NCBI GenBank assembly: GCA_000002445.1
Contig: CP000066.1
Location: forward strand, 480,001 to 544,000
Source: Trypanosoma brucei
Lineage: Eukaryota
Direction of reading: 5' to 3'
Length of the DNA: 64,000 bases
Positions 8,054 to 62,327 of this stretch are shown here, piece after piece. Made by a program: the position numbers and the translations under genes. A model generated the notes under the pieces. It saw only the letters and a list, made by a program, of their open reading frames with translations, did no database searches and was not told the origin of the DNA. How positions within the stretch are numbered: the stretch's first letter is position 1; each line of letters starts with the position of its first letter.

Positions 8054-8403
8054 TTGTGGCGTGATTTGTTGATTCGCGTCCTTTACAAAATAATAATAAT
8101 AACAATACCAATGCCAATGCCAATAAGGTTTTATAGCCCTCCCGTGAAAGGATGGAAGAAAGATAGAAAGAAGAGCATTGACAGAAACGTGCCAACAGGA
8201 AAGAACCCGATCATCGGACACACAGAATGTACCGCTGAAGCGATATAGTAGGTAAAAAGTGCGAGACACAAATGGCAAAAAAAATTTTCAAAGTTCGTAT
8301 GATGGGAAAAGGTGTAAAACATGTGAAATCCTCCCCACATTCATCTGATTATTGCGCCGTACATCAGACCAGTAGACTGCCGCCGATTTTCTCCACGCAC
8401 CAA

Positions 8404-29781: not shown

Positions 29782-30640
29782 CGCTTCACCGCAGGTACAC
29801 GTAGGACGGGTTAAACAAGGGAGAAACAAAAGAACAAAAGCAACAGTTATAGCAATTACAATAAAAGAGTAATGGAAGAGGAGGCCGGAGTGATAGCGGC
29901 ATATTTGAACCAAACGATGAACGGTAGAAATTAGTCGTAGACAAGGACAAACACAAACATTGAGTGCGCCCCGTTATGGTCGTACCGACGCCACACAAAA
30001 GTTCGTGCACGGGTTAAAATGATAAAGTGAAACTAGACAAACAAAGGACGAACAAATAACTAGAAAGAAAAACGTACGCAACGATACTTCTAACAACAGG
30101 TATGCTTTACGCGTGCTTTCGATGCCGCTCCACACGCCGCCCAAGCACATGAAGATATGAGGGAACTCTCACACTCCTTTGCGACGCGCCGCTGCAGCCG
30201 CTTTCCAAGTTGACTTCCCTCTCCTCCGCACTGCGCTCATCAGTTGTTACCACACCGGTAAAAATGATAAGATGCTTCTACAGATGGACTGGAAACGAAC
30301 TGGTGAGTTTCATTCATGTGGTATGTAACAATTTAAGTTCCTGCAACGCAGGAAAAACGCACAAGTTTCTGTACATCGACGCATGGCGAATAAATAATGT
30401 GATGTTATCCCGACCGTCGGAAAAGATAAGGTTGAGGCAACCACAGTGGGTTGTAGGGACGGCATTGTTTGTTGGACTATATGCACGAACCTACGCGCTC
30501 AACAAGAAAGGACGTGGTTTACCGCGGCTACAATATCCCATTCTCTTTCTAGTTTTGATCATGAACCATTTCACCTTTTCCACACCTTTTTACTATTACT
30601 TCTTTTTTTGTTTTTTTTCTTTTTATTCCACCACCTTCCA

Positions 30641-31957
30641 CTACAGCTTTATTCCGGTCTTCTTGTGTGTGCTCGCACGGTCAATAAGAAAGTCATACCA
30701 GTTCGCCTCTGAGGTGGTGTCAATAGGTCGAAGTAATGGAAGCAGCACCTCCCTTCCAATCCTACAATTCTCGCATGTGTACAGCAACTGCTTCAGCCCG
30801 TCCTCTTCCTTTGTTGGAAGTTTCTGCACTTCCTTCGTTAGTGTGCAGGTGTAATAATTACAGTCCATGCATTGCAAACACCTGGTGCTTTGGTGCAGGT
30901 CACGTGATGTCAGTGTCACGCGGGAGCTGTCAGCGCAGCGTGGGCATTTCCACACACGGTAATGCGCGCAACCGTTGCTGAACTCCAGGTACTGTCCACG
31001 AGTCATGATTGATTGAAGGGTGGCGTCGTCCCTGACACGGTGCATCGAGCCGTAGCAAGTTGGGCACATGGTGTCGATGATTTGATTCACAAGCACCGTT
31101 GAGCAGAGACCGAAGAATATGATGCCGATTAGGAGGTACGGAACTGATGTCACGCCGTATGCAGCGGTTTTCGCAGCAAACCGCACTTTGTTTCGTGTGG
31201 GCAACGCCAGAAATCCCCTGTTCCACAGCGTGTGCATTTCCTGAGCTTGACGGGCGATGGCATACACAAGCTGTACCACGGCATAACTGGCTTTTCCCTC
31301 TCGTACGAGTGGTTGAAATATTTCCTTGACTGCTGCCTGGAGAAAGTGCTCTGCAAAATACTCCTCGATGGCAGGACTAGTCACGAGTTGGACGCTTGCC
31401 TCGCTCTGCGCAATCAACAGCAACAAGCCATTTCCACGCGGCTCTCCGATTCCCCAATCAAACAGTATGGAATTAGCAAAGGCTCTCGGCGTGGTATAAC
31501 CAACTGTGGGAACAAGCACAACATACATGTCCACCTCACACAGAGATTGCATTTTGTCAATGGCCTGCTCGATCTCCATTCGGTCCTCGCTTGAAAGCAA
31601 GCCACACAAATCACTTACACGCTTTTTCGCATAGCGAGGCACGAGTTCCCATGGCCGGTCGGACTTTCGGTAGTGAATCTCATCGAACGTTTGTATTTTC
31701 TCAAAAGAGGCGATAACTTCTTTGTTGTTGCGATGGCGACCTGCCTTAATGTCCGCAGCTAAGTCACGACTTTGTCCTAATTTTGCCAAAGGTGATAGAA
31801 GGTTGACACCAGCGCTACGTTGCGCCATGAGCAGCACCGGCCTGAACACCGCCGAACCTCCTCGTCCTCCTGAAAAAAAGACGATGTCGCTAAGAATGCG
31901 ACGAGCAGGAGATGAGGACACTCGGAGAGGGGAGAAGTTAATCCGTGTCCGCTCCAT
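30641..31957 (-). CDS. TPM-domain (TLP18.3/Psb32/MOLO-1 family) protein with one transmembrane helix and a C-terminal Cys-rich zinc-ribbon-like region (438 aa). The N-terminus looks like a presequence.
   Basis: TPM-like core: LSSEDRMEIEQAIDKMQSLCEVDMYVVLVPTVGYTTPRAFANSILFDWGIGEPRGNGLLLLIAQSEASVQLVTSPAIEEYF. TM helix: VPYLLIGIIFFGLCSTVLV. Cys pairs: CPTC, C..C, CPRC, CLQCMDC, C..C. Arg/Ser-rich N-terminus. ATG checked at 31955-31957 (reverse complement). Confidence 0.8.
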   Translation of the reverse strand: MERTRINFSPLRVSSSPARRILSDIVFFSGGRGGSAVFRPVLLMAQRSAGVNLLSPLAKLGQSRDLAADIKAGRHRNNKEVIASFEKIQTFDEIHYRKSDRPWELVPRYAKKRVSDLCGLLSSEDRMEIEQAIDKMQSLCEVDMYVVLVPTVGYTTPRAFANSILFDWGIGEPRGNGLLLLIAQSEASVQLVTSPAIEEYFAEHFLQAAVKEIFQPLVREGKASYAVVQLVYAIARQAQEMHTLWNRGFLALPTRNKVRFAAKTAAYGVTSVPYLLIGIIFFGLCSTVLVNQIIDTMCPTCYGSMHRVRDDATLQSIMTRGQYLEFSNGCAHYRVWKCPRCADSSRVTLTSRDLHQSTRCLQCMDCNYYTCTLTKEVQKLPTKEEDGLKQLLYTCENCRIGREVLLPLLRPIDTTSEANWYDFLIDRASTHKKTGIKL

Positions 31958-36165: not shown

Positions 36166-37134
36166 TCATCTTCTCCTCCCCTCAAGTTTGTACTGCATAC
36201 CGCACCCTTTCGCATGGTTTTTAATGCGTTGAAGCACGTGATCAATCATGAGAGATTCCACGGAACCGTTTGGAGACCGGTGCAGGAGTGTTGGGTTTTG
36301 CTCCTCTCCGTTCCAAAATACCAGCACCCGTTCCCGATAATTTTGCAGCATGTTGGCCACAACAGCGTCGCAACGGTAAAGTCCAAGATTCCTAAGTGCC
36401 TTGGCTTTGAGTTGTTCTTCCTCAGTTTCAAGTTTGAATGTGATGAGATATCGCGGGGCGGCACGGCTCGACCCATGCCACTCCTCACTAATGAGGTCAA
36501 GTATTTTGGGTACGTTGTTAAATTGAATAGTTAGCCCATCTCCGCCACTCATTTTATGGTGCGATAGGCGGCTTTCTGGGATGTAGTAATCCGATACAGC
36601 AGCAGCAGCCAAAAGCATCATCGGTGTTTGGCGTAAACATTCTGCCCTATGGCTAAGCGTCCCTGTGAGTAACGAGAAAAGATACAAATACTCTACTACT
36701 GTGTAATATGGTATTTCAAGGAAACGACTTTTATACTTGGTGTAAGCCTCTATGGCTGCACTGACGTCGCAAGACTTCTGTGGTGCATTCAACTCTGCAA
36801 AAAACTGCTCGGTGGTCATGTTGTCGACGAGACGGCGGAAGGGGAGCTGAGAAGTCTTGCTTCGAAGAAGAATGCATGCCCAACCGCGAGCCAGTAGCTC
36901 TTCTACAAGCACAGCCCCGCGCCCACCAGAACTGAAATTAGTGACAAAACGTACGGCGTGTACCTCCAGTGGAACTGCCGTGCCACCACTCGTAATGAAA
37001 GCCACACCTTCACAACCGTCACGGTTGACGCGCTGAGCGAACTCAAGGGTTTTTGCCTCCCACTGATTGAGGTCGCTCCTTCCCTCTTCTGTCAGGTTTT
37101 CGGTAAAGAAGCGGCTCAGTCCCTCGGCACTCAT
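36166..37134 (-). CDS. PPCS: Phosphopantothenoylcysteine synthetase (PPCS; CoA biosynthesis, DFP/CoaB fold) (322 aa).
   Basis: VRFVTNFSSGGRGAVLVEELLARGWACILL matches the PPCS motif (human VRFLDNFSSGRRGATSAE.FLAAGY.V.FL). An upstream GVAFITSGGTAVPLE nucleotide-binding stretch is present. ATG checked at 37132-37134 (reverse complement). Confidence 0.85.
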   Translation of the reverse strand: MSAEGLSRFFTENLTEEGRSDLNQWEAKTLEFAQRVNRDGCEGVAFITSGGTAVPLEVHAVRFVTNFSSGGRGAVLVEELLARGWACILLRSKTSQLPFRRLVDNMTTEQFFAELNAPQKSCDVSAAIEAYTKYKSRFLEIPYYTVVEYLYLFSLLTGTLSHRAECLRQTPMMLLAAAAVSDYYIPESRLSHHKMSGGDGLTIQFNNVPKILDLISEEWHGSSRAAPRYLITFKLETEEEQLKAKALRNLGLYRCDAVVANMLQNYRERVLVFWNGEEQNPTLLHRSPNGSVESLMIDHVLQRIKNHAKGCGMQYKLEGRRR

Positions 37135-39225: not shown

Positions 39226-40671
39226 TTACAAGATGCCATTACTCATCCACTCTAGTTGTGCCTTTACATCATCACATACAATTGGCACATATCCGCGTCC
39301 TCCCCCCGCATGCTTGAGATAATGTTCACCGAGTGCAAAGCCTAGAGCCACGCGGGCCTGATCGGTTAGGTCGCTGTTGTTTAACTTTCGAGCCGCCCCA
39401 AAGTTAGCACGATAACTCATGAGAGCCTTTTCATGATCACCGCTACTGTCGTACGCCTGACCTAGTTGCATTGTTGCTCGGTAAACGCCCTCTATATCAG
39501 CTGCCTTCTCAGAGAGTTCCAATGCGCATTGCAAGGAATGTACAGCTTCGTCTGTCATATTCATGCGCTCCTGCATGCTCGCAACACACAAAGAGGCCCG
39601 CTTCTCACGCTCAACAAGGTTCGCCGCCCTCGCAACTTCAAAGAACCGTTTCTGGTATTCTAGTGCCCTCCGGAAGTCACCCATGCTTTCGTAAATGTTG
39701 CCAAGTGCGTGCAATGAGTCGGCCTCATCCTTCGAACTCTTAACACGTTGCGACATATCCAGCGCCCGCTCAAGGAAACTGATAGCTTCCTTTGGATTTG
39801 TATCCTTCAACTCCGCACTAAGACTCAAGTAAGTACGTATCAGGCGATAATTGGCCTCTACCGCCGTCTCAACGTCATTTAGTGCCATGGCAAGGTGGTA
39901 CACCTCTTCGAATAAAGCAATTGCCTTCCTGAGTTGCTTGTGCCTCTCAAAGAACGCACCAAACGACAAACGCACCTCCTGCTCAAGTGGGCGGTCCAGC
40001 GATTCCATCGCAATGCGAAGCGCCACGTCATAATGCCACGCGGCCTCGTCACAATCCCGCTCACTTTCGAAATAATCCGCAAGCAATTGGCAACGCTCGC
40101 ATACATCACGAAACTCACTCTGTCTCCTTAACACCTCCACAGCAGCCAGTTGACTCTTCACCCACACTAATTTTTCGTCAGGAATTGTGAAGAGGGTCTG
40201 TGCGAGTTGATCAACGCACACCGGATCCCTGTGTGAAAGGTGAAAGAGATGAATAAATGTGTTTACACATCCCTCTGCTAATGCATCAACGCACAGATGA
40301 AAACGGACCGAGTCCTTTTCACTTTGTGCCACCACAACCGACGCGCAGTTAACGCCCCCGGCAGCGGTGGAAAATCCATCTTTGATAGAGGAGGTTGTGT
40401 TATCGGGCTGACCATGTCGGGTTGTTCCAATACCAAAGGATGACACCACAAGTGCATCGCGCTGCTGCTGCGAAATAAGTGAATCTCTCTGCAACCTTGT
40501 ACGTGTTATCAACTTACCTGATCCGGGTTGGGACGGTTTCACTGGTACCAGGGCCATGTGATTCGAGTCGGGTTTTGCACCCTTACACGCTGACTTTTCG
40601 GGCGAGGGAATGGGGGGAGTTAACTCTTTTAGTGTTACAGTTTTCGTTTTCACAGGCCCAACACTAGCCAT
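39226..40671 (-). CDS. Tetratricopeptide (TPR) repeat protein (481 aa).
   Basis: The C-terminal 300 aa form repeated 34-aa helix-turn-helix units with the W/LG-Y-A-F-A-P pattern, for example ADSLHALGNIYESMGDFRRALEYQKRFFEVA and VYRATMQLGQAYDSSGDHEKALMSYRANFGAA. ATG checked at 40669-40671 (reverse complement). Confidence 0.75.
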   Translation of the reverse strand: MASVGPVKTKTVTLKELTPPIPSPEKSACKGAKPDSNHMALVPVKPSQPGSGKLITRTRLQRDSLISQQQRDALVVSSFGIGTTRHGQPDNTTSSIKDGFSTAAGGVNCASVVVAQSEKDSVRFHLCVDALAEGCVNTFIHLFHLSHRDPVCVDQLAQTLFTIPDEKLVWVKSQLAAVEVLRRQSEFRDVCERCQLLADYFESERDCDEAAWHYDVALRIAMESLDRPLEQEVRLSFGAFFERHKQLRKAIALFEEVYHLAMALNDVETAVEANYRLIRTYLSLSAELKDTNPKEAISFLERALDMSQRVKSSKDEADSLHALGNIYESMGDFRRALEYQKRFFEVARAANLVEREKRASLCVASMQERMNMTDEAVHSLQCALELSEKAADIEGVYRATMQLGQAYDSSGDHEKALMSYRANFGAARKLNNSDLTDQARVALGFALGEHYLKHAGGGRGYVPIVCDDVKAQLEWMSNGIL

Positions 40672-45008: not shown

Positions 45009-47249
45009 CTATTTTTCACTGGGCGCTGAGGCCCGTCTTGAGTCCGACACATTGCTACTACTCCGGAGTCGTTTTACTGCTCCCCCACGGCTACTAACCA
45101 CGCTTTGATTCTTATCCTTCATTGAAAGCCGCCGTGTTTGGGTGTCTGGCAGTGTTGTAGATGTGTCATTACGCAGAGATGCAGAGGCAGAGGCAGAGGC
45201 TGCTGCACAAACGGCATTGGAAGACTGTGACGAGGTGGAAGGGCGGAGTGGGGGCATGTTACCAATCTGTAAAAAGGCTCCCAAAGAAGCGCCAGTAGCC
45301 GAAACCCTCAGTGCCTCATTTATTTGTTGCAGTGATCCAGCCACCTCATCGTTCATCTCAAGGTCGGTGAAAATGTCCTTACTGCTCTCAACCGCCGCAC
45401 GACAGGCATTTTGCAGAGCATGACGGAATGGCAACACATCAGCGGGTGTCGGTAACTTTGTAGTCATTGAAATACTATCTTCGTATAGACGTTGTTCGCA
45501 CTCGAGCTCATCATCTAAAATCATCTGTTCCCTCACATACGCTGACAGGGTCTCCTGTAGTTGTGATTTAAGTCGCTCCTGCACACCCTCTAAAGAAGCA
45601 CGACGGCGTTTCTGAAGTGAATGAACTGCGGCAACATGTTTCTGCGTCATTGCCACAATGTTTTGTCCGAGGGAAGCAAAGTTCTCGTTGATACGTACAA
45701 CGCAACGCGCCATGTCATCCTCGTACTGCCGTGTGGACACACCAAATGTGCTTCCCCTCTTCCTCCCCTCACTTCCCTCTTCTGCGTTGCCCTTCGATCC
45801 CTCGTCACGGCATTCATCGTCACCCTCCTCCACCTGTCCCATCAGCGTGTCGAGTCTCCATTGCTCAAGCCGCTGAAACACCGCCTCCGTACCACGTTTT
45901 GCGGTGTTGTGGGCGTCACGCACTGCATCCTGCACAACCAACTGGAGTGTGCCAACCTGGGAGTCAAACTTCAGAAGGGCCTCGTGGTACACCTGTTTAA
46001 AGCGGACCAACTCTTCCTCCTTCTCCTCTATCATCGCCTTCAGTACACTGGTTTGCGAATCAGTGATATGTTGGAGACCTTCATTTTCCCGCCGCTCCTT
46101 CAGCAACGTATCCACATTTGATTTTAGCTCAGTATATTCCTCCTCCAGTTGCTGGTACCGTTCGTGGTCCTCGCGAGAAATATAGTAACCGCCCCGCTCC
46201 GCTACGCGCTCCTGGAGGCGGTTGCGTAGCCGCTGGTTTTCAGCTTCGAAGGAACGGAGACGAATCATCAACTTCTCCCGTTCAGTGTTTGCCTGGTTTC
46301 GAATGGACCGGGCCTTCACTGCGTACATAAGAGTCGACTTGGTTTCTTCAATGTCCCGGCCGACGGAAGAAATGCATGCGATCATGAGAGTCCGCGCACT
46401 GCCACCGATGGAGTCCCGCAAGATCTCTGTTAACTTGGAGTCCCGGTACGGCACGTGATTTGGCCGTGTTGTGTCGTTAGAGTTTGAAAGCGCAAGAAAC
46501 ACATTTTTTAGCGCTAACAATGATTTGTTGATCTTTCCCGTTTCGCCCGCAGCCGCCCCACTAGCGTGAGATTTCTTTAAACTCTCACTACCCGCAAGAT
46601 CCACCATGAACAAGTGGGTTACATCCACACTGTTGGTGTACTCGTTAAACTCTTCGTAGTCGACTATTATAACGACGTGGGAGCGGCTGCTCCGCTCATT
46701 CATGAGAGTCGACGCAATGTGACGGCGGCTTAATCCCTTCTGAATTGCCGCAAATGCATCGGCGACCCGTGATAACGTCAACTTCTCGTTGGATACCGGA
46801 AACCCACCAACAAGCGTCACCTCTGTTTCTCCATCCTTACTGAGCATGTCAATCAGTTTCTCATTGTATATTTCTATCATGGAAAGTGTGAGTGCGCACT
46901 GCGCCCCTTCAACTGTCCTTTGCTGCACGTGCTCAAGCATGGAGCCGATCATACGGTGGGCAATACCACTCGATCCTCCAGCTCCACCTAACATAGTAAA
47001 CGTCTTCCCCGTCCCAGTCTGTCCGTACACCATTACAGTGCCATGTAATCCATCCTTCACGCTCTGTAGAATGGGCTCACATATGGCATAGACATCGTCC
47101 TGCGTAGCAGTGGGGGGAAATATATAGTCCGGGTCGTAACTTTTGTTGTCCAACATGACACGCCTTCCATTGACGAAGCTGAGGCCAGCCGCAGGGCGCT
47201 CACTCTCAAATAGTGGCCGACAGCGAACTGCCACCTTAATGTTGCTCAT
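45009..47249 (-). CDS. Kinesin with an N-terminal motor domain (746 aa from the first ATG) and coiled-coil stalk.
   Basis: MSNIKVAVRCRPL, GQTGTGKTF (P-loop), SSRSH (switch I), VDLAGSE (switch II), HVPYRDSKLT. The ORF-track start at 47303 is a TTG. The ATG was checked at 47247-47249. Confidence 0.9.
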   Translation of the reverse strand: MSNIKVAVRCRPLFESERPAAGLSFVNGRRVMLDNKSYDPDYIFPPTATQDDVYAICEPILQSVKDGLHGTVMVYGQTGTGKTFTMLGGAGGSSGIAHRMIGSMLEHVQQRTVEGAQCALTLSMIEIYNEKLIDMLSKDGETEVTLVGGFPVSNEKLTLSRVADAFAAIQKGLSRRHIASTLMNERSSRSHVVIIVDYEEFNEYTNSVDVTHLFMVDLAGSESLKKSHASGAAAGETGKINKSLLALKNVFLALSNSNDTTRPNHVPYRDSKLTEILRDSIGGSARTLMIACISSVGRDIEETKSTLMYAVKARSIRNQANTEREKLMIRLRSFEAENQRLRNRLQERVAERGGYYISREDHERYQQLEEEYTELKSNVDTLLKERRENEGLQHITDSQTSVLKAMIEEKEEELVRFKQVYHEALLKFDSQVGTLQLVVQDAVRDAHNTAKRGTEAVFQRLEQWRLDTLMGQVEEGDDECRDEGSKGNAEEGSEGRKRGSTFGVSTRQYEDDMARCVVRINENFASLGQNIVAMTQKHVAAVHSLQKRRRASLEGVQERLKSQLQETLSAYVREQMILDDELECEQRLYEDSISMTTKLPTPADVLPFRHALQNACRAAVESSKDIFTDLEMNDEVAGSLQQINEALRVSATGASLGAFLQIGNMPPLRPSTSSQSSNAVCAAASASASASLRNDTSTTLPDTQTRRLSMKDKNQSVVSSRGGAVKRLRSSSNVSDSRRASAPSEK

Positions 47250-47335
47250 CTCTTTGCTCTCTTGCCTGTTTGACACACCACCCGCTGCTGTGCCTTCTGA
47301 CAAGACACGTTAAACAGTGTTTACCAACATGTCGG

Positions 47336-49309: not shown

Positions 49310-52300
49310 TCATGACTGCATCGCCTTCACTGCAGCAGACACCAAACCCTGCAGTGCCTGAGCCTCCGTGCACAAACGCTTGCATTCCTCCCCACGCTGC
49401 TGGTGTATCCCCTCCTCAAGGGACTTACAAATTGAATCTACTTTAGGTTTGATACGCTGCTCCATTATTGTTTGCAATGCACGGCGGTCCTTTTTCTGCA
49501 TTTCCACAGACCTCTTGAGAAAGCTGATCTCTGCGTCCTTTCCACGGACGTCTTCGCCCTTTGCATCATTCAACCTGGTGAGCAACTCCGATATCTCATT
49601 ATCCCTCTCCTGCAGCGTGCGGCGCCACTCCTCTTCACGTTTCGAGTGAGCACTACGCAAGTCGAGCAACTGCGCCTCCAACGACTGAACTGCAGTGGCT
49701 GAAGCAAATCTCTCTTCTGGTGAAGAGGCAGGGTTCAACTCAACACCCTTGAAACCAGTGTCAGGATTTGAAGAGGCGCCGACGTGAGTTTCCCCTTTAC
49801 ATGCATCCGCAGCGCACTCCACTGCCCTCTCCACGCTACGCTTCGCCTCGCCTGCCACGTGATCCTGAAGCAACTTCAGCGCTACACAGACTTCGCTAAG
49901 CTCCTCCCGTTGCAGTGCAGACGTGCAGTATTCTAAGGCTTTCTGAGATTCAACACGCATGACGTCTATCTCGCCAGACAAATGCAAAAGTTTCTCCTCT
50001 TTCTCCGCTAATTGTCGCCGCAACATCTCTATTGAGCCCTCATAAGCTTTGCGTACCGTCTCTTGTTGTCCGTCGAAGTACCGCCGGGTGTACGAAATGG
50101 CCTCCAGCGCCTCTGGCAACTGCTGAGCCCTTGACGCATCCATTAACCTACCAAGGGTGCTGTAATCTTTTCTTAGTGCAAGCAACTGCAATTCCTTGTC
50201 CTTCACGGCGTGCGAAAGTTTCCCGAAGTAACTGCTCACCTGCTGGTGGGCAATTCTTTCAACAGCTTCCTGTACAACTTTCGCCAACTGGTCCTTCAGA
50301 CCACCGGTCACATACGTCTCTGCTGCTTCCCTCCGCGACTCCGTGTCCAGTTGTGGTGCCACAACCTCCTGAATTTTAGTGTGATTGAATGTCAGTAGCT
50401 CCAATATCTTCTCATCTGGTGGTAGCAACACCGAGGGATTGGTGTCCGATCGGTACCACATATCGGTACCACTTCCATCACGACGCGGCTTCGGCACACG
50501 AAGACGTCGCAGGCAGTTTTCCGCCTCCTCCCTTGAAAGAGCAGTGGAGGATTTGCCAACTCCTTCACCAGGGGAAACCAGCGGCGGCACCGAGTCATTC
50601 GCACTTTCCGTTAACCCTTCAGAGCTTTCACGAGTGCTTAACTCTTCCTTCAAATTCCGAATAATTTCATCTCTTTCACTGAGCTTCGACGTAAGGTCCA
50701 CAACAATATCCCTGTGTTTGACGAGCAACTCGTTATACCGGCTCAGCATCGCCTCCTCTTGAAGCACCTGCCATTGGTGGTGAATCTCCTCAAGACCAAG
50801 CATATATTCCTCTGGGTCGACGTGCTCTTCACAGCCGCCATTGCCAGCTTCATTCCCTCTGCTATCACGTAGAATCGCTTCTAGTTCCTCCAGTCGCCGT
50901 TGCAGCTGCATGCGAACAGCTTGCTCGTGTTGATGAGCACACAGAGACCTTTGCAGTGCTTCCACAACCTCCTCACGCTCCTCCTCCGCACGGCGGACAC
51001 TCTGCTGCAACTCTGACAGGAGCCCAACATCTAACCCCTGCTGTGACTGCAGTTGCATCGCATCTTGCTGCCCCGGTAGAGACCGCTGCCTCTCGTGCTG
51101 GGTGTCTTCATTAATAACGGCGGTATTTCGTATGTTTTTGGCGCGATTGGCAAACAAAAGTGTTGAGAGAGTTTCCGCATGGGACTCCAGAGCAGGTGAA
51201 ATACACACAATGAGAGTGGTCTTACAGTTACCGCCAAGGGAGTCCCGCAGCACACTCGTGAGCACAGAATTTCTGAAGGGAACATGGGAACTACGCGATG
51301 CACCACCGTCCTTGTTGTCTTTTCCACAACTCTTCCGTTGAGCTAGTGCCGAAATGACGTTGCCGAGTTCGTGTAAGGATTTGTTAATACACCTCGCCTC
51401 CTCCAGTCGTTGCCCGCTTACGCCTGATTGTCGTACCTTCTCGCTCCCGGCAAGGTCCACAATGTTCAACTTTCCCACGCGGTGAGAAGATACCGAACCA
51501 GTTACCGGGTCCTTTTTTACAGTTTCCACCGTAAGGATGAAAATGGCGTGTGAGCGAGAGGACAATTCGCTCATGCGGGTTGCTTCCGTGGCACGTCTTG
51601 AGGTACCGCGCTCCATAAGGTAATACACGTCCCGTGGACTACACACATTCCATTCCGAGAGGCCATCAACATGAACACCGCTCCGCGTTGTGTGCCGCAC
51701 CACCAACGACCGTGGTGCCTCCTCCCCCGGTGGCTTTAATAAATCAGATATAACCTCATTGTATATTTGCATATACGACGCTCGGATGGTGTAATCCACA
51801 TTGCCACACCGACTATCGTCCATAATACTGAAGATTTCCTCTACAGCACGGGCAATGATGCCATGCTGCTCCTCTCCAGCAAACCCCTCCATTGTGTATG
51901 TTTTTCCCGCACCCGTCTGCCCATACGCCAACAAGGTAGCGTTATAACCCTCCACGACGGATAGGACGGCACTACGGGCACTCCGCTCATACACATCCCG
52001 TTGCAGATCATATCTGTCGTGCACGTAATCAAACGTAAAGGTTTGTGTCGCGTAAACTTCTGCAAAGCAACCACTAGCTTTGTTGTCATCGCTATTGTCA
52101 CTCAGATCAACTGGTTCGCACAATGTAATGGACGATCGATCCTTGGAAACACGCACAACATCAGTGTACCGGCTGTTTTCCTTGAGCTCACGCGGTAGCG
52201 GAGGGCGTACACGTATCACAACCGTTATGTTTGATTCACTATCGCCATTTGGAGTGAATGGAGTTGCACTGACACGGGTAGATTTTGAAGTCTCAGACCC

Positions 52301-52528
52301 GAAGCCCCAGCTCACAGATTGGGATGCGAATTGGCCGTCAGCACCACTACGCTGTATGGTTTTGTCATTAGTACTACACCCAGAGCAGTGATGTGTCATC
52401 ATCGCCGGCACAAGTGGCGGAGATGTGTCGTTAAAAACTACTCGCGCACGACGCCGCCCCTCCTCCCGTTGAGGCATCCCCGGTATTGATTGTCCACTTG
52501 AACCTGTAAAACACGCGGAAGTGTTCAT
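49310..52528 (-). CDS. Kinesin with an internal motor domain (residues about 100-470) and a long coiled-coil tail (1072 aa).
   Basis: ITVVIRVRPPL, GQTGAGKTYTM, SSRSHAIF, VDLAGSEK, HVPFRNSVLT. The following 600 aa are heptad-rich. ATG checked at 52526-52528 (reverse complement). Confidence 0.9.
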   Translation of the reverse strand: MNTSACFTGSSGQSIPGMPQREEGRRRARVVFNDTSPPLVPAMMTHHCSGCSTNDKTIQRSGADGQFASQSVSWGFGSETSKSTRVSATPFTPNGDSESNITVVIRVRPPLPRELKENSRYTDVVRVSKDRSSITLCEPVDLSDNSDDNKASGCFAEVYATQTFTFDYVHDRYDLQRDVYERSARSAVLSVVEGYNATLLAYGQTGAGKTYTMEGFAGEEQHGIIARAVEEIFSIMDDSRCGNVDYTIRASYMQIYNEVISDLLKPPGEEAPRSLVVRHTTRSGVHVDGLSEWNVCSPRDVYYLMERGTSRRATEATRMSELSSRSHAIFILTVETVKKDPVTGSVSSHRVGKLNIVDLAGSEKVRQSGVSGQRLEEARCINKSLHELGNVISALAQRKSCGKDNKDGGASRSSHVPFRNSVLTSVLRDSLGGNCKTTLIVCISPALESHAETLSTLLFANRAKNIRNTAVINEDTQHERQRSLPGQQDAMQLQSQQGLDVGLLSELQQSVRRAEEEREEVVEALQRSLCAHQHEQAVRMQLQRRLEELEAILRDSRGNEAGNGGCEEHVDPEEYMLGLEEIHHQWQVLQEEAMLSRYNELLVKHRDIVVDLTSKLSERDEIIRNLKEELSTRESSEGLTESANDSVPPLVSPGEGVGKSSTALSREEAENCLRRLRVPKPRRDGSGTDMWYRSDTNPSVLLPPDEKILELLTFNHTKIQEVVAPQLDTESRREAAETYVTGGLKDQLAKVVQEAVERIAHQQVSSYFGKLSHAVKDKELQLLALRKDYSTLGRLMDASRAQQLPEALEAISYTRRYFDGQQETVRKAYEGSIEMLRRQLAEKEEKLLHLSGEIDVMRVESQKALEYCTSALQREELSEVCVALKLLQDHVAGEAKRSVERAVECAADACKGETHVGASSNPDTGFKGVELNPASSPEERFASATAVQSLEAQLLDLRSAHSKREEEWRRTLQERDNEISELLTRLNDAKGEDVRGKDAEISFLKRSVEMQKKDRRALQTIMEQRIKPKVDSICKSLEEGIHQQRGEECKRLCTEAQALQGLVSAAVKAMQS

Positions 52529-52930: not shown

Positions 52931-54326
52931 TTCCCCTGCTACCAACAACTTCGCTCACTTATATTGTATTTCCTTTCTTTCTTCGCTTTGTTACTTTATT
53001 GATATTGATTAAAAGGGGGAAAACTTGTGCATCTATTCATCTATGTTATTTCTTTTCTTTACTCTCCTCCCTTGACTATCACGCTAACACACTCACGAGT
53101 CTTTCTTGTCTTTGTTTGGCTAATTTTTTTCCCCCTCTCTCGTGTCGCTACTTCTGCCGCTGATGCGCTTGTAACTCAACTCTCCATCAATGATTGTATC
53201 TTCTAATTGTAATAAACACACCGCTTGGAAGTTTCTATTATCTACGTCCGTCACCCTTCCCTCCCAGCGGTTCTGATATATGTAAATAAATAAATAAACT
53301 CATTTACTCATCCACTCATTCATTCATTCATTTCATTCCACCTTTCAACCTCATCCCATTCCCCCCCCTTCAGTTCCTTTTCTCTTCACGCTCGAGCTTT
53401 ACACACGGCGTAAAAGTCCTCACGAAAATACAAGGGGGAAAAAGAGACAGAAATCGAAAAGTAAAATAAAGAGTGAAAACTGAATGCGTAAAAACAGGAT
53501 GATGCAAAATAACACACCACACACAAAAAAAACAGAAGAAAAAAAGAGCGAAGATACGTACAGGTGCGAGAAGTTCCTGTTGCATACCTCGAGTAGTGTC
53601 TAAGTGCTCTATCTAAATGCGCGCATAGACACAGAGGAGAAACTCGTAAAGGCACTTACGCGGGGAGTAGGTGTGAACAAAAATAAATAAGTAAAAAGAC
53701 AAAATGTAATGACAATAAAAAGGAGGGAAAATAGAAACCAAGGAAAAGGGATAGAAAATGGAAGGAAATGAAATGAAGAAACAAAAAAAACGGAAGCGAC
53801 TTATGAGTCACTCCATGTGCTCTATTGACGCAACACGAAGCAACGGAACCACCACATGTTCTCTTTTTTTTTTCATCCCTTTCCCTCTCGACAAACAAAT
53901 ATTTTCCCTTTGCGCTCGCTTCAGCCCCCACTCCGGCTGCCGCAGTTCACGTCCCACACGTAATGAAGGAAAAGTAAAGCGGACAGCACAAGCTGAAACG
54001 CAGGCACAGTGGCCTCTATCAAATAACATCCAACGCTTAAACTCCTTCGTATGCTTTTTTTTTTCCTTTGTATCCTTTATTTACCCACTCCCTCTCTTTC
54101 TTTGATCTATGCAACCACACTTCCTGCATACAGTAGGTGGGACACAATGATAGAAAACAAACCACAACCAATAAATAAATAAATAAATGATGTATCCAAC
54201 GAGCTGTGATGCTTATCTAGTAGAATACGCTCATGGTATACGGCGGATTGCGAATGCGTTGGGTGAAAAGAAAAAAAAAGCAGACCCCCGCCTCCAATAA
54301 CTGACATGACACACGAGGCTGCTCAT

Positions 54327-57300
54327 CTACCGCTTCCCAGCCTTCGCCTTCTCAGTGGGTTTCCTACCGGGTTTCTTCTTGGAAGCAGCCGGCTCTGCAG
54401 GCTGCTTCTTTGCTGTGGGTTTTGCTACAGGTTTCTTGGCTTTTGTAGTCTTCGCCGTCTGTTTATTTGCGCCCTTTGCTTTCTCTGTCGCTGCTGCCGT
54501 TGCCTTAGCATTCTTTGCGGCAGCCACCTGCTTACCCGCTCCTTTTGGCTTCTCAGCCGCTGTGACAGCCGCCTGCTTACCAGCGGTTTTTGCCTTCTCA
54601 GTCGCTGTGACAGCCGCCTTACTATTCTTTGCAGCAACTGTCTTCTTATTTGCCGCCTTTCCTTTGGCTGTTGCCGCCCCTCTCGTCCCTGCTGCCGGAT
54701 CCTTGCTCTTTCCCCGCTTTCCAGTGTCTTTGGCTTTACCCTTCACAACGGCAGTGGCAGCAGCAGCAGCTCTTTTCTTTCTGGTTGCCCGCATTGGCTC
54801 AAGTTCCTTCTCAGGGGGTGAGTCTAACCACTCCTTCAAGTCATTTCGAATTTTTCCAGCTCGATTCGCCTTCTTCCCACCCACCTCTGCACGAGCTCCC
54901 CTCGTCTTCTTCGGAGGCTCTTCCGCCTCCTCATCGGTGTCCTCACTTCCTTCCTCCTCCTCTTCACCATCATCATCCTCTTGCTCTTCCTCCTTTCGGG
55001 GTGAGCGCTCGATAAACTTCTTGGGACTTTGGAAACCTATATTGGTTCCACTCAAATCCTTTGCAAATGGCGGGTTGTCATCATCATTCTGCGGTGCGCC
55101 CGGCAGAAGCTGCGTCGACTTCAAAAGCACTTTAGTGATCACCGGCCGAGCACGAGACGAAGACGTTTGATCAGAGTACAGCATTCCTCCTACTACAGGT
55201 GTATTACTTCTCTGCAACCCAGTGTTTGCAGGGCGAAGCACTTGCATTGCAGATGCGCCGAAGGAGGTTGCACCAGGAATGAGACCCGGTTGATGCTCTC
55301 GTTGCTGACGGTTGTACTTCTGTTGTTGACCGGAGTGCTCATGGTGGAACAGCTGCTGTTGTGGTGCCTGTTGCTGCTGCTGGAAATAATGCTGCTGCTC
55401 TTGTGGAAAACGTTGGTGTTGCTGCTGCTGCCACTGTGGTGGTTGTTGTTGCTGCTGCTGCTGGTGGTGGTATTGTAGTTGTTGGTGCTGCGGTCGCTGT
55501 GTCTGCTGGGGTTGATGAAATGGTATATGCCGCTGCTGTTGTTGCTGTTGCTGTTGTTGTTGTTGCTGCTGTTGCTGTTCGTATAGGAACTGCTGCGGCT
55601 GCCGGAACTGCTGGGACTGATGTGGTTGGTTAGCCTGCTGGTTGTACTGTTGCTGCTGGTTATGGAACTGATTGTAGTAATATGGGTCCCGTTGTTGTTG
55701 GTCAGTGGATAAACCAAAGATATTGCTACTACTGGGCGCACCGAATGCCTGCGTCGGCTGCGGTTTCATTGACGGCCAGGTGCCGCCTAATCCTTCCATG
55801 TTTGATTGGGGTACCACAGGGCTTTCTTCGGGGGCACCCCACATCGAAGCTGAAGAAAGCCATGATGTATTTGACGGTGGTGAAGCACCCCAGTTGCCGA
55901 GTTCATACTTTGGATATTCCTGCTTGGAATATTGACCTGTGCCCCCACTACTTCTGTTGTCCTTAAGAGCGGCAGATCGCACATCGCTTAAAGGAATCTT
56001 TGTGCGGCGCGGTTGCCCCTCCTCGTGGCATTTTTGTTCCAGTTGCTGACTGTAACTTCTCTCGGGAACAGCAGCCGGACGATGCTTCTCGGGCGGTGGT
56101 GACGCAAACATGGTGGTGGGAGGATTATTATGGTTCAAAAGTCCCATGAATGGCGAAGCAGTACGGGTTTCTGGCGACCGCAAGGTCACAGGTGACGAGG
56201 TTGAGGCAGAGGCGGAGGCGGAGGTACCAAAATGCTGCGACCGCTGCGGATCTTCAGCGGAACTCAGAGGATTTTTGAACATGGACCACAGCGTCGAGTT
56301 GAATCCCGTTGGGTTCCCCTCCGCAGCAGCAGGTTTGTCCGTTCGATACCTGTCCGGTTCATTTTGCTGCTGATGTTGCTGTTGTTGCTGCTGGTGGACG
56401 TTGCTGCCCCGAGCACGGTTAGTGCTCCCTGCGGCGTCAGCACTGCTTTCATTGGTGTTTGAGGCAAGGCCAGTTTGGGGGGCGGCCCCTGAGCCACTGG
56501 CACCACCAATTTCAGTTGAACTGGTTAACGTATGGCCCGCATTCATCGCAAATGGTGGAGCAACTACCAGAGCGTCAGAGCCAGCGGAACTTTTACTTTC
56601 TGTCTTACCGGGCATGCCTATTGTCGCATTCGAAAAGGGGTCCATTGACAACGACTCATTCAAATCTTGTGAGACCGTCAGCTCGTTTACAGGTGGTGCC
56701 TCCCCTAATGCCTTCGTCATTTTCAACGTGAACCGACCAACCCGCTTCTGCTCTGCCTCCTGCGGGAGAGCTATGTTTCTCACAGCCTCTCGGAGCTGGG
56801 GCTCATACGCATCAGCGTTAGACCTAACAGATTTAACCATTGGACTAGATTGAGTCAGTGGCGTCTGCAAGGCACCTTGCTGAGCCTGCGCAAGAAGGAC
56901 CGTGATTCTCGCGGTTGTTTCATCCGGTTGTGTGAGTCGCCCATACGGACCGTTCACGAGCTCGGTAAGTATCTGCTCCAGCAACGGCTGTTGGGTGACG
57001 CTTCCATAGACGGTGCACAGCGAACAAAGCAAATTTTCCATTTCCTTGGCATTTATATTGCACAACCGCTCATGAAACTTTTCTCTAAATCGCGCAAGCC
57101 ATTCGGGTCCCGGGTGCATTTTTGCTAGTGGTCGCACCGCTTCAAGATAGCGCAGTACAGTGCCCATCCGAATTCGTTCCGCTCCAAGAAGCTCCTGACC
57201 GCCACTCACCACAAAGTGGCATATGGCATCTCCCGACCCTCCTCCAAATACGCCCGTCATGAGCTCAACCAAAGAAACAAATTGCTCCGGTGACACCGAT

Positions 57301-59045
57301 ACTGTTTTGGCAGCTTCAAGCGCCTTTGCTGTGTCTCGAGCGTGCGGAATCAGATTGGCAGCCAGTGGCAGACAGTAAAGGGTATCGCTTGTCCACTCCG
57401 CCTCAGCAAATCGAGCGGAGAGGAAAGCAACACAAGCTGAGTGTAGCTCGGGCCGCCCGGAGGCCTGAAGCATACGAATCTCATCAGGAGAGAAGCGCTC
57501 TTGGGCCGCTTGTAATCGGGCAACCAGCTCCGCCACAAGTGCCCCATCAAATTTCGTGCCCTGTACCAAAGACAGGGCGTCAACGAGCTGTCGAGCTGAT
57601 ACATCACTCAAATTAACCTGTGCATGCAATGCCTCATCGTCTGGAAAGGCCAGGGCAAGCAACAGTTTTGTGTGGCTGCTGCACTCGGGTTGTAACAATC
57701 GACTTGCCACTGCCTTAGCCTCCGGCATCCAGGAGGGTGCCATAGGAGCGAATGTTGCACAAATGTGGCTTATCTCTGACAACGAAAACTCACCGAGCAC
57801 CGTTTCTATGCGCTCCCCAAGACGCACCGCCAATTCTTGCGACAGTAGACTTGAGCGGCGAAGAATGCCAGCTGCCATTGCCAATTGCTGGGGCTCAAAT
57901 CGGCCAACGTGCCGCCCTACGTACGCCTGGTATGCGAGAAACACGTTTCTGTAACGAAGTCGGCCGCCCATTTCATATGCGAAGGCAATGGTTGTCATGT
58001 CATCGCAGTGACTCCAGTGCAACTTATCATTACAGTCAAAGAAGCTCATCACACGTGGTTCATATTCCTCTAAAAGAGTGCTAAGCCGCCCCCCAAGCTC
58101 ACACACATCGTGCTGTGTTAAGCCGTTCCTTCCCGGTTGCAAAGATCCAACCATCTTCGCTACAGACCCGATGATGGAAGCAACATCACGTCCATTAGCC
58201 GTCGTAGAGTACATAAGACCTGCACGGGCAAGGCGCTGCTGCAGCTGGGGTGGGAAAGGAAGCAGCTGATGGTGCCGAAGGCATGAGTTCATCAGCGTGG
58301 AAAAATCGTAGCTGTGGAATTCGCCTGAATGATCCAAAAGGGCGACAAGGAAATGACTAGCCTCAGCGACCTTACCAGTGCGTACTAACCAACTGTAGAC
58401 CCTCAGCAGCGGGGGCTGCATCCGCGGCATATCGGTTGTTGGTGTATTCTGTAGGCGTGTGACGGCAACCTGTGCGAGCGTCTCACTTAAAGTACTGGGC
58501 GCGTGCTTGCCGCCACGCTGCAAGACCTTTGCAGCGCACTCGATCAAATTCCAAAAGTCATGATAGTCAGTATTGCTACTACCACCCTCCTGAGAAATTT
58601 CATTTAGTACCCTGTCTACAGTGGCAAACGTCCGCTCCAAATATTGGTCGCCGCGTTGAGTCAGCGCCACAGCTGCTAGAAGACGGGTGACACCGTCGTG
58701 GTTTTTATCATCTAACGTACGCACAAGTTTGTTTGTAATGAGTGCCTGCAATGAGGTGTCTGGTTCTATCTCGAAGAATGAGAGGAGCTGCGCTAGAGCC
58801 ACCGCATTGTTTCCCTGTTCGATCCACACATTTATCTCATTTTGAGGGACTTCAGTCTCCAAAAAACGCTCCGCCTCGCGTCTAGCGAAATCGTACTGCC
58901 CTCGGCCTCGATACTTGCGTTTCAGAGCAGCGGCCCTGTGGGCGAACTTAGTCATGGAACTGCCGCCACTGCTTCCCCCAAAGCCGCTCCCTCCGGAAAC
59001 GAAAGGGGCGCTGGGCCACGCAAGTAATACGGCGACACGCCGCAT
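54327..59045 (-). CDS. Giant protein (1572 aa). The N-terminal ~770 aa are helical and non-repetitive, followed by Gln-rich/polyQ and acidic regions, then a histone-H1/KAP-like Lys/Ala/Pro-rich C-terminal tail.
   Basis: N-terminus MRRVAVLLAWPS. PolyQ runs: QQQQQQQQQQQQQQQRH, HHQQQQQQQPPQWQQQQ. Acidic block EEEQEDDDGEEEEEGSEDTDEEAEE. Tail KGKAANKKTVAAKNSKAAVTATEKAKTAGKQAAVTAAEKPKGAGKQ...KKPVAKPTAKKQPAEPAASKKKPGRKPTEKAKAGKR. ATG checked at 59043-59045 (reverse complement). Confidence 0.8.
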   Translation of the reverse strand: MRRVAVLLAWPSAPFVSGGSGFGGSSGGSSMTKFAHRAAALKRKYRGRGQYDFARREAERFLETEVPQNEINVWIEQGNNAVALAQLLSFFEIEPDTSLQALITNKLVRTLDDKNHDGVTRLLAAVALTQRGDQYLERTFATVDRVLNEISQEGGSSNTDYHDFWNLIECAAKVLQRGGKHAPSTLSETLAQVAVTRLQNTPTTDMPRMQPPLLRVYSWLVRTGKVAEASHFLVALLDHSGEFHSYDFSTLMNSCLRHHQLLPFPPQLQQRLARAGLMYSTTANGRDVASIIGSVAKMVGSLQPGRNGLTQHDVCELGGRLSTLLEEYEPRVMSFFDCNDKLHWSHCDDMTTIAFAYEMGGRLRYRNVFLAYQAYVGRHVGRFEPQQLAMAAGILRRSSLLSQELAVRLGERIETVLGEFSLSEISHICATFAPMAPSWMPEAKAVASRLLQPECSSHTKLLLALAFPDDEALHAQVNLSDVSARQLVDALSLVQGTKFDGALVAELVARLQAAQERFSPDEIRMLQASGRPELHSACVAFLSARFAEAEWTSDTLYCLPLAANLIPHARDTAKALEAAKTVSVSPEQFVSLVELMTGVFGGGSGDAICHFVVSGGQELLGAERIRMGTVLRYLEAVRPLAKMHPGPEWLARFREKFHERLCNINAKEMENLLCSLCTVYGSVTQQPLLEQILTELVNGPYGRLTQPDETTARITVLLAQAQQGALQTPLTQSSPMVKSVRSNADAYEPQLREAVRNIALPQEAEQKRVGRFTLKMTKALGEAPPVNELTVSQDLNESLSMDPFSNATIGMPGKTESKSSAGSDALVVAPPFAMNAGHTLTSSTEIGGASGSGAAPQTGLASNTNESSADAAGSTNRARGSNVHQQQQQQHQQQNEPDRYRTDKPAAAEGNPTGFNSTLWSMFKNPLSSAEDPQRSQHFGTSASASASTSSPVTLRSPETRTASPFMGLLNHNNPPTTMFASPPPEKHRPAAVPERSYSQQLEQKCHEEGQPRRTKIPLSDVRSAALKDNRSSGGTGQYSKQEYPKYELGNWGASPPSNTSWLSSASMWGAPEESPVVPQSNMEGLGGTWPSMKPQPTQAFGAPSSSNIFGLSTDQQQRDPYYYNQFHNQQQQYNQQANQPHQSQQFRQPQQFLYEQQQQQQQQQQQQQQQRHIPFHQPQQTQRPQHQQLQYHHQQQQQQQPPQWQQQQHQRFPQEQQHYFQQQQQAPQQQLFHHEHSGQQQKYNRQQREHQPGLIPGATSFGASAMQVLRPANTGLQRSNTPVVGGMLYSDQTSSSRARPVITKVLLKSTQLLPGAPQNDDDNPPFAKDLSGTNIGFQSPKKFIERSPRKEEEQEDDDGEEEEEGSEDTDEEAEEPPKKTRGARAEVGGKKANRAGKIRNDLKEWLDSPPEKELEPMRATRKKRAAAAATAVVKGKAKDTGKRGKSKDPAAGTRGAATAKGKAANKKTVAAKNSKAAVTATEKAKTAGKQAAVTAAEKPKGAGKQVAAAKNAKATAAATEKAKGANKQTAKTTKAKKPVAKPTAKKQPAEPAASKKKPGRKPTEKAKAGKR
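55340..55640. repeat. Imperfect CAG/CAA (polyglutamine-coding) trinucleotide repeat tract inside the 1572-aa gene.
   Basis: The plus strand reads ttgctgctgctg...gttgttgttgctgctgctgctgg...ttgttgctgttgctgttgttgttgttgctgctgttgctg, which is the reverse complement of CAG/CAA codons. Confidence 0.85.
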
Positions 59046-61019: not shown

Positions 61020-62327
61020 CTACTCTGGGTCTTTACTCGACCGGGAGGACAAAAGCCGCGGCATAGCTAAGTCAACAAAATGCCCATCGGACGCAAAAAA
61101 TCCCCCTTGAATATCTTTCCCACGGTCCGCAACACCATTAGAATTTTCCCGTCGCTTCTTGCTTTTAGTTACTAGTGGTGACATGGGTTGAGATAACCCC
61201 TCCAGCTCCGTGACATAGGAGAAAAGGTCCGCCATGTCCATCATACCAAACTTTGGATCTGCTGTTCCCGATTGTCTCTCAAGCGAGCCCGGGCCCGACC
61301 CCGACCTGCTGTTGCTACATGCGTTTGCACCTGAGAGAGAAAGACTCCCTTTTGCGCGTTTCATCTTATTTGGGCTTGGTATATCAACGAGCCATCGATG
61401 CGAAAGAAGCTCTCTTGCACTCGGACGAAGGGCCGGATCCCGTACAAAACAAAGATCTAAAAAGTCTTGCAACAGGGGAGACCCCTCGCAGTTGACTGGA
61501 AGGCGGGGTGATCCTGAGTTATTTGATACTATCGCAAATAGCACCGCAGCAGGATTTTTCATATTCCCCCCAAACGGCTTCCTTCCACTTATCATCTCGT
61601 ATACGGTAACACCTAAACTCCACACATCCGCTGCTGTTGTGTAGCTACTTTCCCCCTTATTATCATTGTTGCTCCTATAATCAAAGTCACCGCCACCGGC
61701 ATCGGGGGAGTCATCGGTGTCATTTGGTACATTCCTATCGCTATCGACAACTTCCGGAGCCATATACCATGGTGTTCCCACCGTTGTGTGCATCCCGACA
61801 GTATCATCGATGAGTTTACTCACACCAAAATCTGTTAACTTGCAGCGACCATCCGCGGTGATAAGAACATTGGCGGGTTTGATGTCCCTATGACAAATAC
61901 GGGCAGTATCATGCAGATACGCGAGCCCCTCTAGCAAGTCACGAGCATACGACCGCACTACATTCTCACGTAAGGATCCCTGCCGTCTAATGATCCCGTC
62001 CAATGACCCGCCGTTCACGTACTCCATTATTATCTCTACACCCACTGCGCTACGGCGTGCGCCATAATACGTAACGAGGTTTGGGTGTTGCACCCGTTCC
62101 ATCAGATGAATCTCCTGCAAAATCGCTCGCATGTCGTCGGAGATAACAGGAGGTTCCTGAGGAAATGCATCTCCCCCATCCCCACCTTCCGGTGCGACAA
62201 CACCACCGTCGTACAGAGGAATTTCCTTCACGGCAACGAAACAACCTTTTTCCTCATCGTAACCCTCGTAAACGACACCTCTCGCCCCAACGCCTAACTT
62301 GCGATTCGTCCTACGAATGTTCTCCAT
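61020..62327 (-). CDS. Protein kinase, STE-group-like (MAP3K/MEKK-like), with acidic insertions (435 aa).
   Basis: GVGARGVVYEG, VAVKEI, HRDIKPANVLI, DFGVS, GTPWYMAPEV, DVWSLGVTVYEM. ATG checked at 62325-62327 (reverse complement). Confidence 0.85.
   Translation of the reverse strand: MENIRRTNRKLGVGARGVVYEGYDEEKGCFVAVKEIPLYDGGVVAPEGGDGGDAFPQEPPVISDDMRAILQEIHLMERVQHPNLVTYYGARRSAVGVEIIMEYVNGGSLDGIIRRQGSLRENVVRSYARDLLEGLAYLHDTARICHRDIKPANVLITADGRCKLTDFGVSKLIDDTVGMHTTVGTPWYMAPEVVDSDRNVPNDTDDSPDAGGGDFDYRSNNDNKGESSYTTAADVWSLGVTVYEMISGRKPFGGNMKNPAAVLFAIVSNNSGSPRLPVNCEGSPLLQDFLDLCFVRDPALRPSARELLSHRWLVDIPSPNKMKRAKGSLSLSGANACSNSRSGSGPGSLERQSGTADPKFGMMDMADLFSYVTELEGLSQPMSPLVTKSKKRRENSNGVADRGKDIQGGFFASDGHFVDLAMPRLLSSRSSKDPE

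Follow-up and report, generated by a model that had tools for sequence, protein, structure and literature searches.

A 1572-residue protein of Trypanosoma brucei, very probably the kDNA replication factor MiRF172, combines a modelled alpha-helical solenoid with a disordered half ending in a Lys/Ala-rich tail

In the present study, we analyzed a 64,000-nucleotide stretch of the Trypanosoma brucei genome (GenBank assembly GCA_000002445.1, contig CP000066.1, positions 480,001 to 544,000 of the forward strand; hereafter, the window, in which all positions are counted from the first letter). An uninterrupted open reading frame (ORF) on the minus strand at 54327-59045 very probably encodes MiRF172 (minicircle replication factor 172, Tb927.3.2050), which is encoded in the nucleus and takes part in kinetoplast DNA (kDNA) replication in the mitochondrion. 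The initial annotation of the window, a reading of the raw sequence, had described a giant 1572-amino-acid (aa) ORF starting with MRRVAVLL, and this was confirmed. The gene has already been named, published, and characterized by Amodeo, Jakob and Ochsenreiter (2018, J Cell Sci 131:jcs211730; PMC5963845), and the finding itself is not new. The points that go beyond the 2018 paper are a solenoid model, its structural neighbours, four short motifs, and a set of short homologues.

MiRF172 was considered as a candidate because poly-Q and a Lys/Ala tail occurred together in a protein of 172 kDa. Tb927.3.2050 was described as a basic 172 kDa protein with a predicted N-terminal mitochondrial targeting signal (MTS) and a phosphosite at S999, and was detected in mitochondrial proteomes; its poly-Q stretch was found only in Trypanosoma, and its Ala/Lys-rich C-terminal region is conserved across Kinetoplastea (PMC5963845). 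The calculated mass of the protein in the window is 172.4 kDa, residue 999 is Ser, and the N-terminal presequence, poly-Q, and Ala/Lys-rich C terminus are all as published. The construct coordinates also agree. The published RNA interference (RNAi) target is ORF 4409-4719 and the hemagglutinin (HA)-tag primers correspond to ORF 4617-4716 (PMC5963845); the ORF in the window is 4719 nt long, and its last sense codon ends at bp 4716. The PTP tagging fragment, which starts from bp 4404, was linearized with BsmI (PMC5963845), and within ORF 4404-4716, there is one BsmI site (GAATGC, at ORF 4533), and sites for ApaI and NotI are absent. Furthermore, the family was kinetoplastid only in homology and profile searches, as is MiRF172, and the neighbouring genes (a kinase, two kinesins, NOT3/5, and SLBP) support the same identity. 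No difference from MiRF172 (Tb927.3.2050) was detectable, and we regard the identification of the ORF as secure.

In both life-cycle stages, MiRF172 tagged in situ is found at the antipodal sites on the rim of the kDNA disc, and this localization requires kDNA and partly requires the tripartite attachment complex (TAC) (PMC5963845). RNAi slowed growth and resulted in shrunken or lost kDNA; minicircle and maxicircle abundance decreased to about 60%, free nicked/gapped minicircles increased, and gapped free minicircles were left unattached (PMC5963845). The authors proposed that MiRF172 reattaches replicated minicircles, possibly with topoisomerase II (PMC5963845). A review likewise gives its localization and role in kDNA (PMC10719067), and PMC10374059 has also been cited for its function; these and other later publications repeat the 2018 picture without an added mechanism. 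In targeted term searches of the literature naming MiRF172, we came across neither an assay of DNA binding by the tail nor a fold assigned to the N-terminal part. The initial annotation had suggested a chromatin- or kDNA-tethering factor. The published antipodal localization and kDNA dependence bear out the kDNA part of this suggestion and contradict the nuclear chromatin part; moreover, the published function is replication by minicircle reattachment, not pure tethering (PMC5963845). MiRF172 was also listed near Alba3/Alba4 cytoplasmic granules during differentiation (PMC10998879). This proximity might be due to a sticky, Q-rich precursor that has yet to be imported, or to non-specific labelling.

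The N terminus is consistent with mitochondrial import. The presequence was judged from its charge pattern and conservation: The first 51 aa contain nine basic and no acidic residues, aa 1-60 are basic (isoelectric point [pI] 11.7), and the MRRVAVLL start is conserved in T. vivax (MRRAVVLLSWP). Residues 1-29 were disordered in the AlphaFold2 model (predicted local distance difference test [pLDDT] <50). The initial annotation had regarded the N terminus as mitochondrial-looking, which the absence of acidic residues from the basic presequence, the MTS predicted in the paper, and the detection in mitochondrial proteomes support (PMC5963845).

Amodeo et al. stated that MiRF172 has no similarity to other proteins outside low-complexity regions, and gave no fold for the N-terminal 750 aa (PMC5963845). 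The composition of aa 1-800 is ordinary and Leu/Ala-rich. For aa 1-802, AlphaFold2 with an alignment of 15 sequences gave a mean pLDDT of 82.5 and a predicted template modelling score of 0.73; residues 33-756 were all-alpha, which upholds the helical N-terminal domain of the initial annotation. A Foldseek search against the PDB returned generic solenoids with low template modelling scores (TM-scores). The top TM-score belonged to RESC6 of the trypanosome RNA-editing complex, and the best structural matches of residues 33-756 were organellar helical-repeat proteins (RESC6, RAP/HPR, and OPR mitoribosomal proteins). In its model, MiRF172 may resemble RESC6, HPR/RAP FASTK-like, and OPR mitoribosomal proteins, which are mitochondrial alpha-solenoids with helical hairpins about 35-40 aa apart. 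However, no relationship to these proteins at the sequence level, RAP domain, or repeat motif was detected, and the MiRF172 phenotype concerns DNA, not RNA.

We assign the solenoid to no repeat family because the searches for such an assignment were empty or not significant. There was no FAST, RAP, PPR, or other Pfam match at E<=10 with the query and 10 orthologue N-terminal domains, and neither a RAP domain nor the FAST_1/FAST_2 motifs were found by Pfam in these 11 members. A recognisable 35- or 38-aa PPR/OPR repeat motif was not found by Pfam or self-hhalign, self-hhalign of the profile gave no significant internal repeats (E=0.4), and the sole match of the N-domain profile in a PDB sequence search was one designer PPR protein (E=0.32). 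A regular expression for HPR-like helices matched four times versus 0.18 in shuffles, and was not used because the pattern had been derived from the same data. Thus, on the basis of the model, we describe aa 33-756 as an organellar-type alpha-solenoid. Residues kept back to the short homologues described below include K42, R46, G47, F90-F91-E92, R177, R215, A389, G393, L395-R396-R397, E424, and H427.

Residues 776-1572 were predicted to be disordered. In the AlphaFold2 model of aa 761-1572 (pLDDT 44.7), only a short helix at aa 1403-1408 (LKEWLD; fragment residues 643-648) was structured, with a block pLDDT of 75 versus about 44 elsewhere. The first part of this half (aa 800-1130) is rich in Ser, Pro, Ala, and Gly. 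In an alignment of the C-terminal halves of 15 sequences, which are otherwise 15-44% identical to the query, G-R-F (770-772), D-P-F (802-804), P-R-R (1012-1014), L1403, W1406, L1407, and P1410 were invariant. Four motifs (DPF, PRRT, RxRPVIT, and LxxWLxxP) occur in the same order across trypanosomatid orthologues, which otherwise diverge in this region, and about half of the trypanosomatid homologues retain RPV[IM][TS] (aa 1300-1304). The four motifs are likely docking sites, and no mention of them was found in the literature searched.

The initial annotation had also described a Gln-rich block of about 250 aa encoded by CAG/CAA repeats. Its Gln-richness and mixed codons were borne out; however, the region is 152 aa long. 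The wider segment of aa 1130-1290 is 42% Gln. The longest Q run (15 residues, 55533-55577) is encoded by a mixture of CAG and CAA codons in which pure runs do not exceed four, and a second, small Q6 run is located at 56376-56393. This mixed coding should damp replication slippage. The longest run is 15 here versus 2-11 in other full-length homologues; therefore, the tract changes over evolutionary time. Q-richness was mainly found in Trypanosoma homologues, in line with the published description (PMC5963845). An acidic block precedes the tail, as noted initially: aa 1340-1400 are acidic, and the most D/E-rich 40-aa segment (50%) begins at aa 1337 and includes a core at aa 1351-1376. This block is prominent only in the protein of the window and its closest relative (P0001).

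The tail (aa 1400-1572) consists of 27% Ala and 24% Lys, with a net charge of +36 and a pI of 10.7, in agreement with the Lys/Ala-rich tail of 170 aa in the initial annotation. Tandem Repeats Finder reported a repeat with a period of 45, 2.2 copies, and 87% matches at 54521-54619. The two in-frame copies encode AAVTATEKAKTAGKQ and AAVTAAEKPKGAGKQ; they correspond to the 45-nt duplication noted initially, for which the positions then given (54550 and 54595) are the midpoints of the copies. The initial annotation had named the absence of the tail from orthologues as grounds for refuting its reading, and no such absence was seen. All full-length trypanosomatid homologues had a strongly basic C terminus (net +20 to +35 in their last 100 aa), usually with 35-64% Lys plus Ala, and most short kinetoplastid homologues had weaker basic tails (+15 to +23). 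A reading of KKKPGRKP (aa 1557-1564) as an AT-hook was rejected since the core is GRKP instead of GRP; apart from this protein, only T. vivax and P0001 have the KK(K/R)-(P)GRKP ending.

The tail resembles histone H1 and the kinetoplast-associated proteins (KAPs) in composition only. The initial annotation had pointed to this likeness, and the compositional part holds. However, we rejected homology because a search with the tail alone returned no protein at E<=0.01, not even the tails of the orthologues; moreover, the tail gave no Pfam match at E<=10 and no relative in a PDB sequence search. Pfam also found nothing meaningful in the protein as a whole or in its middle region, and no Linker_histone winged-helix domain in the whole protein or the tail at E<=10. 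Since the tail alone does not retrieve the tails of orthologues, selection appears to act on charge and composition, as in the C-terminal domains of H1. These domains are, similar to the MiRF172 tail, disordered Lys/Ala/Pro-rich polycations expected to bind DNA irrespective of sequence and to neutralize charge, and trypanosomatid H1 consists of only the C-terminal-domain region of a linker histone. In contrast to linker histone H1, MiRF172 lacks a winged-helix globular domain and resides in another compartment; the likeness is one of composition, not ancestry. KAPs are found throughout the kDNA disc, whereas MiRF172 is found at antipodal sites. KAP proteins are highly basic and Ala- and Lys-rich (PMC8080567). 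KAP1-4 of Crithidia fasciculata and T. brucei share with MiRF172 mitochondrial import, association with kDNA, and a strongly basic, Lys/Ala-rich composition, which in MiRF172 is limited to the tail. However, KAPs are small and some have HMG boxes, whereas MiRF172 is 172 kDa and has none; its basic segment is a tail on a large solenoid and disordered region, and no sequence homology to KAPs was detected.

The homology search returned only trypanosomatid proteins, all of which were unnamed or wrongly named. Identities were 61-63% over the N-terminal half in T. melophagium and T. theileri, 53% in T. vivax, 49% in T. cruzi and T. rangeli, and 43% in Leishmania major. The ORF is not a chance one, as Trypanosoma and Leishmania have homologues at E=0. 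About 20 trypanosomatid homologues retain the order of solenoid, disordered region, LxxWL motif, and basic tail. Distant homologues were found by an exhaustive HMMER search with a profile of the N-terminal domain, which retrieved 27 proteins; a word-indexed profile search returned only two known ones. Short homologues (P0022-P0028; 740-930 aa, E 1e-76 to 1e-22) have no poly-Q or long disordered insert, and in most of them, the solenoid is followed almost directly by the basic tail (e.g. ...KKAAAAGKGKPAAGKPAAKKLAAKTASKAAPAKKPAAKKK). One is from Cryptobia/Trypanoplasma borreli, the available transcriptome sequence of which ends in acidic/Lys repeats with no Lys/Ala tail, and the others are from environmental assemblies. 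In one environmental contig (L001:6001-8787; ENA ERZ1292630, groundwater metagenome), the short homologue lies in the same order as in the window, namely, kinase, MiRF172 homologue, kinesin, kinesin. Therefore, this homologue and MiRF172 are orthologues, and the gene order is old, since the same arrangement occurs in a contig from a distant kinetoplastid.

Judging from the sequences compared, the solenoid and basic tail appear to be the old core of the family, the 600-aa disordered insert with its motifs appears to be trypanosomatid-specific, and the poly-Q block largely Trypanosoma-specific. We also envisage that this core is an ancient two-part device, an HPR/OPR-like solenoid with a polycationic tail, and that the ancestral job of the solenoid was to recognize gaps or primers on replicating mitochondrial DNA. 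We consider this idea unlikely as a whole; its age component draws on the solenoid and basic-tail proteins in environmental kinetoplastid-type sequences, including the one in conserved gene order, and on the solenoid homologue of T. borreli, which lacks a basic C terminus in the available sequence. The kDNA of T. borreli is not known to be a catenated network. If the idea is true, the ancestral job of the two-part core was not the reattachment of circles to a network.

By computation, MiRF172 is made up of a presequence (aa 1-30), a solenoid of ~725 aa, a disordered region of ~800 aa, the LxxWL helix, and the 170-aa Lys/Ala tail. We propose that these modules act as follows. The presequence would direct mitochondrial import. 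By analogy with the C-terminal domains of H1 and with KAPs, the polycationic tail may bind kDNA electrostatically and irrespective of its sequence, and this proposed binding would explain why the localization depends on kDNA. The solenoid, the short motifs, and the LxxWL helix may dock partners, among which topoisomerase II is the proposal of Amodeo et al.; TAC components as partners would give rise to the DNase-resistant, TAC-dependent fraction of MiRF172. The Q-rich disordered region may extend the reach of the protein and let it self-associate in a multivalent manner at the antipodal sites, and, more speculatively, the acidic block may modulate the adjacent tail by intramolecular charge pairing. 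Together, these parts would keep gapped minicircles, once replicated, at the edge of the network for reattachment.

Several points weigh against this identification and mechanism. The homology search gave no T. brucei entry and the exact protein had no record in the collections searched; its identity rests on matching attributes. We estimated a pI of 9.16 versus the published 9.5, a gap that is probably due to differing pKa tables. Regarding the mechanism, no published or computed result for DNA binding by the tail was found, the link to topoisomerase II is a prediction of the authors, not a result, and the RNAi phenotype is mild, with a 30-40% loss of circles (PMC5963845). Moreover, part of MiRF172 remains in the pellet after DNase treatment (PMC5963845); therefore, DNA binding is not its sole anchor.

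One alternative is that MiRF172 is mainly a structural part of the TAC, which tethers kDNA to the TAC, rather than a replication factor. The protein was identified by screening for components of the TAC, remains associated with isolated flagella and with the DNase-treated pellet, and, where cells lack kDNA, relocates to the region of the old TAC (PMC5963845). It was also detected in DNase-treated flagellar extracts (PMC10374059), and a solenoid, a long linker, and a putative DNA-binding tail are the layout expected of a tether. However, its depletion resulted in shrinking kDNA and free gapped minicircles, not missegregation, and TAC102 was correctly placed without it (PMC5963845). MiRF172 is also positioned at the antipodal sites rather than along the axis of the TAC (PMC5963845, PMC10719067). 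We consider a mainly structural role to be quite unlikely. Another alternative concerns the solenoid, which may be a working HPR/FASTK-RAP- or OPR-type binder that recognizes a specific feature of RNA or single-stranded DNA, for example, gaps or primers of replicated minicircles, and not a passive scaffold. RESC6 had the best TM-score, within an overall low range, and the residues retained in the short, distant homologues are mostly basic (K42, R46, R177, R215, R396, R397, and H427). In contrast, the empty Pfam searches, the lack of a RAP domain or an internal repeat, and the single designer PPR match do not favour such a binder, and RESC6 may serve as a scaffold instead of binding RNA. Specific binding by the solenoid appears unlikely; a nucleic-acid-binding solenoid is, nevertheless, compatible with the reattachment model.

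Two further explanations are exceedingly improbable. The Lys/Ala-rich tail, which matches the composition generally known for trypanosomatid H1, would suit a nuclear chromatin protein of the linker-histone type. However, the localization of the tagged protein at kDNA and its detection in mitochondrial proteomes refute this explanation (PMC5963845), and the basic presequence, the absence of a linker-histone Pfam domain, and the lack of a detectable sequence homologue of the tail also argue against it. An assembly or annotation artefact (a frameshift or fused genes) in the low-complexity C-terminal part is suggested by the repetitive DNA and by nothing else. The ORF has the same length as the published gene model, the C terminus was tagged in situ at ORF bp 4716 and the fusion protein was detected (PMC5963845), and the order of the modules is kept among trypanosomatid homologues. 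The C-terminal tagging and the conservation refute such an artefact.

The features of MiRF172 and its neighbours are summarized in Table 1. The ORFs of at least 400 aa in the window are all on the minus strand except for one, which is overlapped by a longer minus-strand ORF, and this one-strand arrangement is the layout of a trypanosomatid polycistronic unit. Two plus-strand ORFs antisense to the Lys/Ala tail and acidic block (54306-54821, 171 aa; 54355-55170, 271 aa) were rejected as genes. They are mirror ORFs of a low-complexity coding region, caused by its biased codon content.

Table 1. Positions of MiRF172, its features, and the neighbouring genes in the window
Feature	Position	Strand	Remarks
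Complete MiRF172 coding sequence	54327-59045	minus	4719 nt including stop codon 54327-54329; 1572 aa, 172.4 kDa; starts with MRRVAVLL
N-terminal presequence, aa 1-30	58956-59045	minus	MRRVAVLLAWPSAPF...; predicted mitochondrial targeting signal
All-alpha solenoid, aa 33-756	56778-58949	minus	about 40 helices; conserved family core
Small beta-hairpin closing the solenoid domain, aa 766-775	56721-56750	minus	QKRVGRFTLK; AlphaFold2; G-R-F (770-772) invariant
D-P-F motif, aa 802-804	56634-56642	minus	first short motif of the disordered half; invariant
Ser999 and P-R-R-T region	56001-56051	minus	Ser999 at 56049-56051; published phosphosite (PMC5963845)
P-R-R-T motif, aa 1012-1015	56001-56012	minus	P-R-R invariant
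Gln-rich region, aa 1107-1258	55272-55727	minus	152 aa, 46% Q
R-x-R-P-V-I-T motif, aa 1298-1304	55134-55154	minus	alignment of homologues
Acidic block core, aa 1351-1376	54918-54995	minus	KEEEQEDDDGEEEEEGSEDTDEEAEE; GAA/GAG-type repeat at 54950-54994
L-K-E-W-L-D-S-P motif, aa 1403-1410	54816-54839	minus	helix; L, W, L, and P invariant in 15 sequences
Lys/Ala-rich basic tail, aa 1400-1572	54330-54848	minus	ends with KKKPGRKPTEKAKAGKR; composition
Tandem 45-nt duplication inside the tail	54528-54617	minus	copies 54573-54617 and 54528-54572; 39/45 identical
Protein kinase gene	61020-62327		upstream of MiRF172
Kinesin-motor gene	49310-52528	minus	downstream of MiRF172
Second kinesin-motor gene	45009-47303	minus	downstream of MiRF172; in tandem

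Elsewhere on the minus strand of the window, we noted ordinary housekeeping genes for an SLBP-type RNA-binding protein (20960-22735), a NOT3/5 subunit (25714-27528), and WD40 (28342-29913), TPM-domain (30641-31957), DFP-domain (36166-37134), and TPR (39226-40671) proteins, a set that we take to fit T. brucei chromosome 3. In a 771-aa ORF (3930-6245, minus), an ATP-grasp domain (D-Ala-D-Ala ligase C-terminal type, E 2e-15) and a SET domain (E 1e-7) occur together, which is unusual, and a 364-aa ORF (7184-8278, minus) has a CHAP (amidase/peptidase) domain with 28.8 bits versus a Pfam cut-off of 26. An 867-aa ORF without a Pfam match (13734-16337, minus) is located in a 2-kb stretch with the strongest AT skew of the window (-0.32). 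Long ORFs on both strands overlap there, which suggests another low-complexity coding region.

A reading of the raw sequence predicted the right compartment and role of the already known MiRF172. The present study adds a confidently predicted fold of the N-terminal 750 aa, a part described in 2018 as having no similarity to other proteins, and a map of four short motifs and one helix in the disordered half, which provide mutagenesis targets for partners, such as topoisomerase II and TAC proteins. It also adds a minimal version of the protein, a solenoid with a basic tail, in some non-trypanosomatid kinetoplastids. The fold, the motifs, and this minimal ancestral architecture are modest additions to our understanding of MiRF172 and its family.

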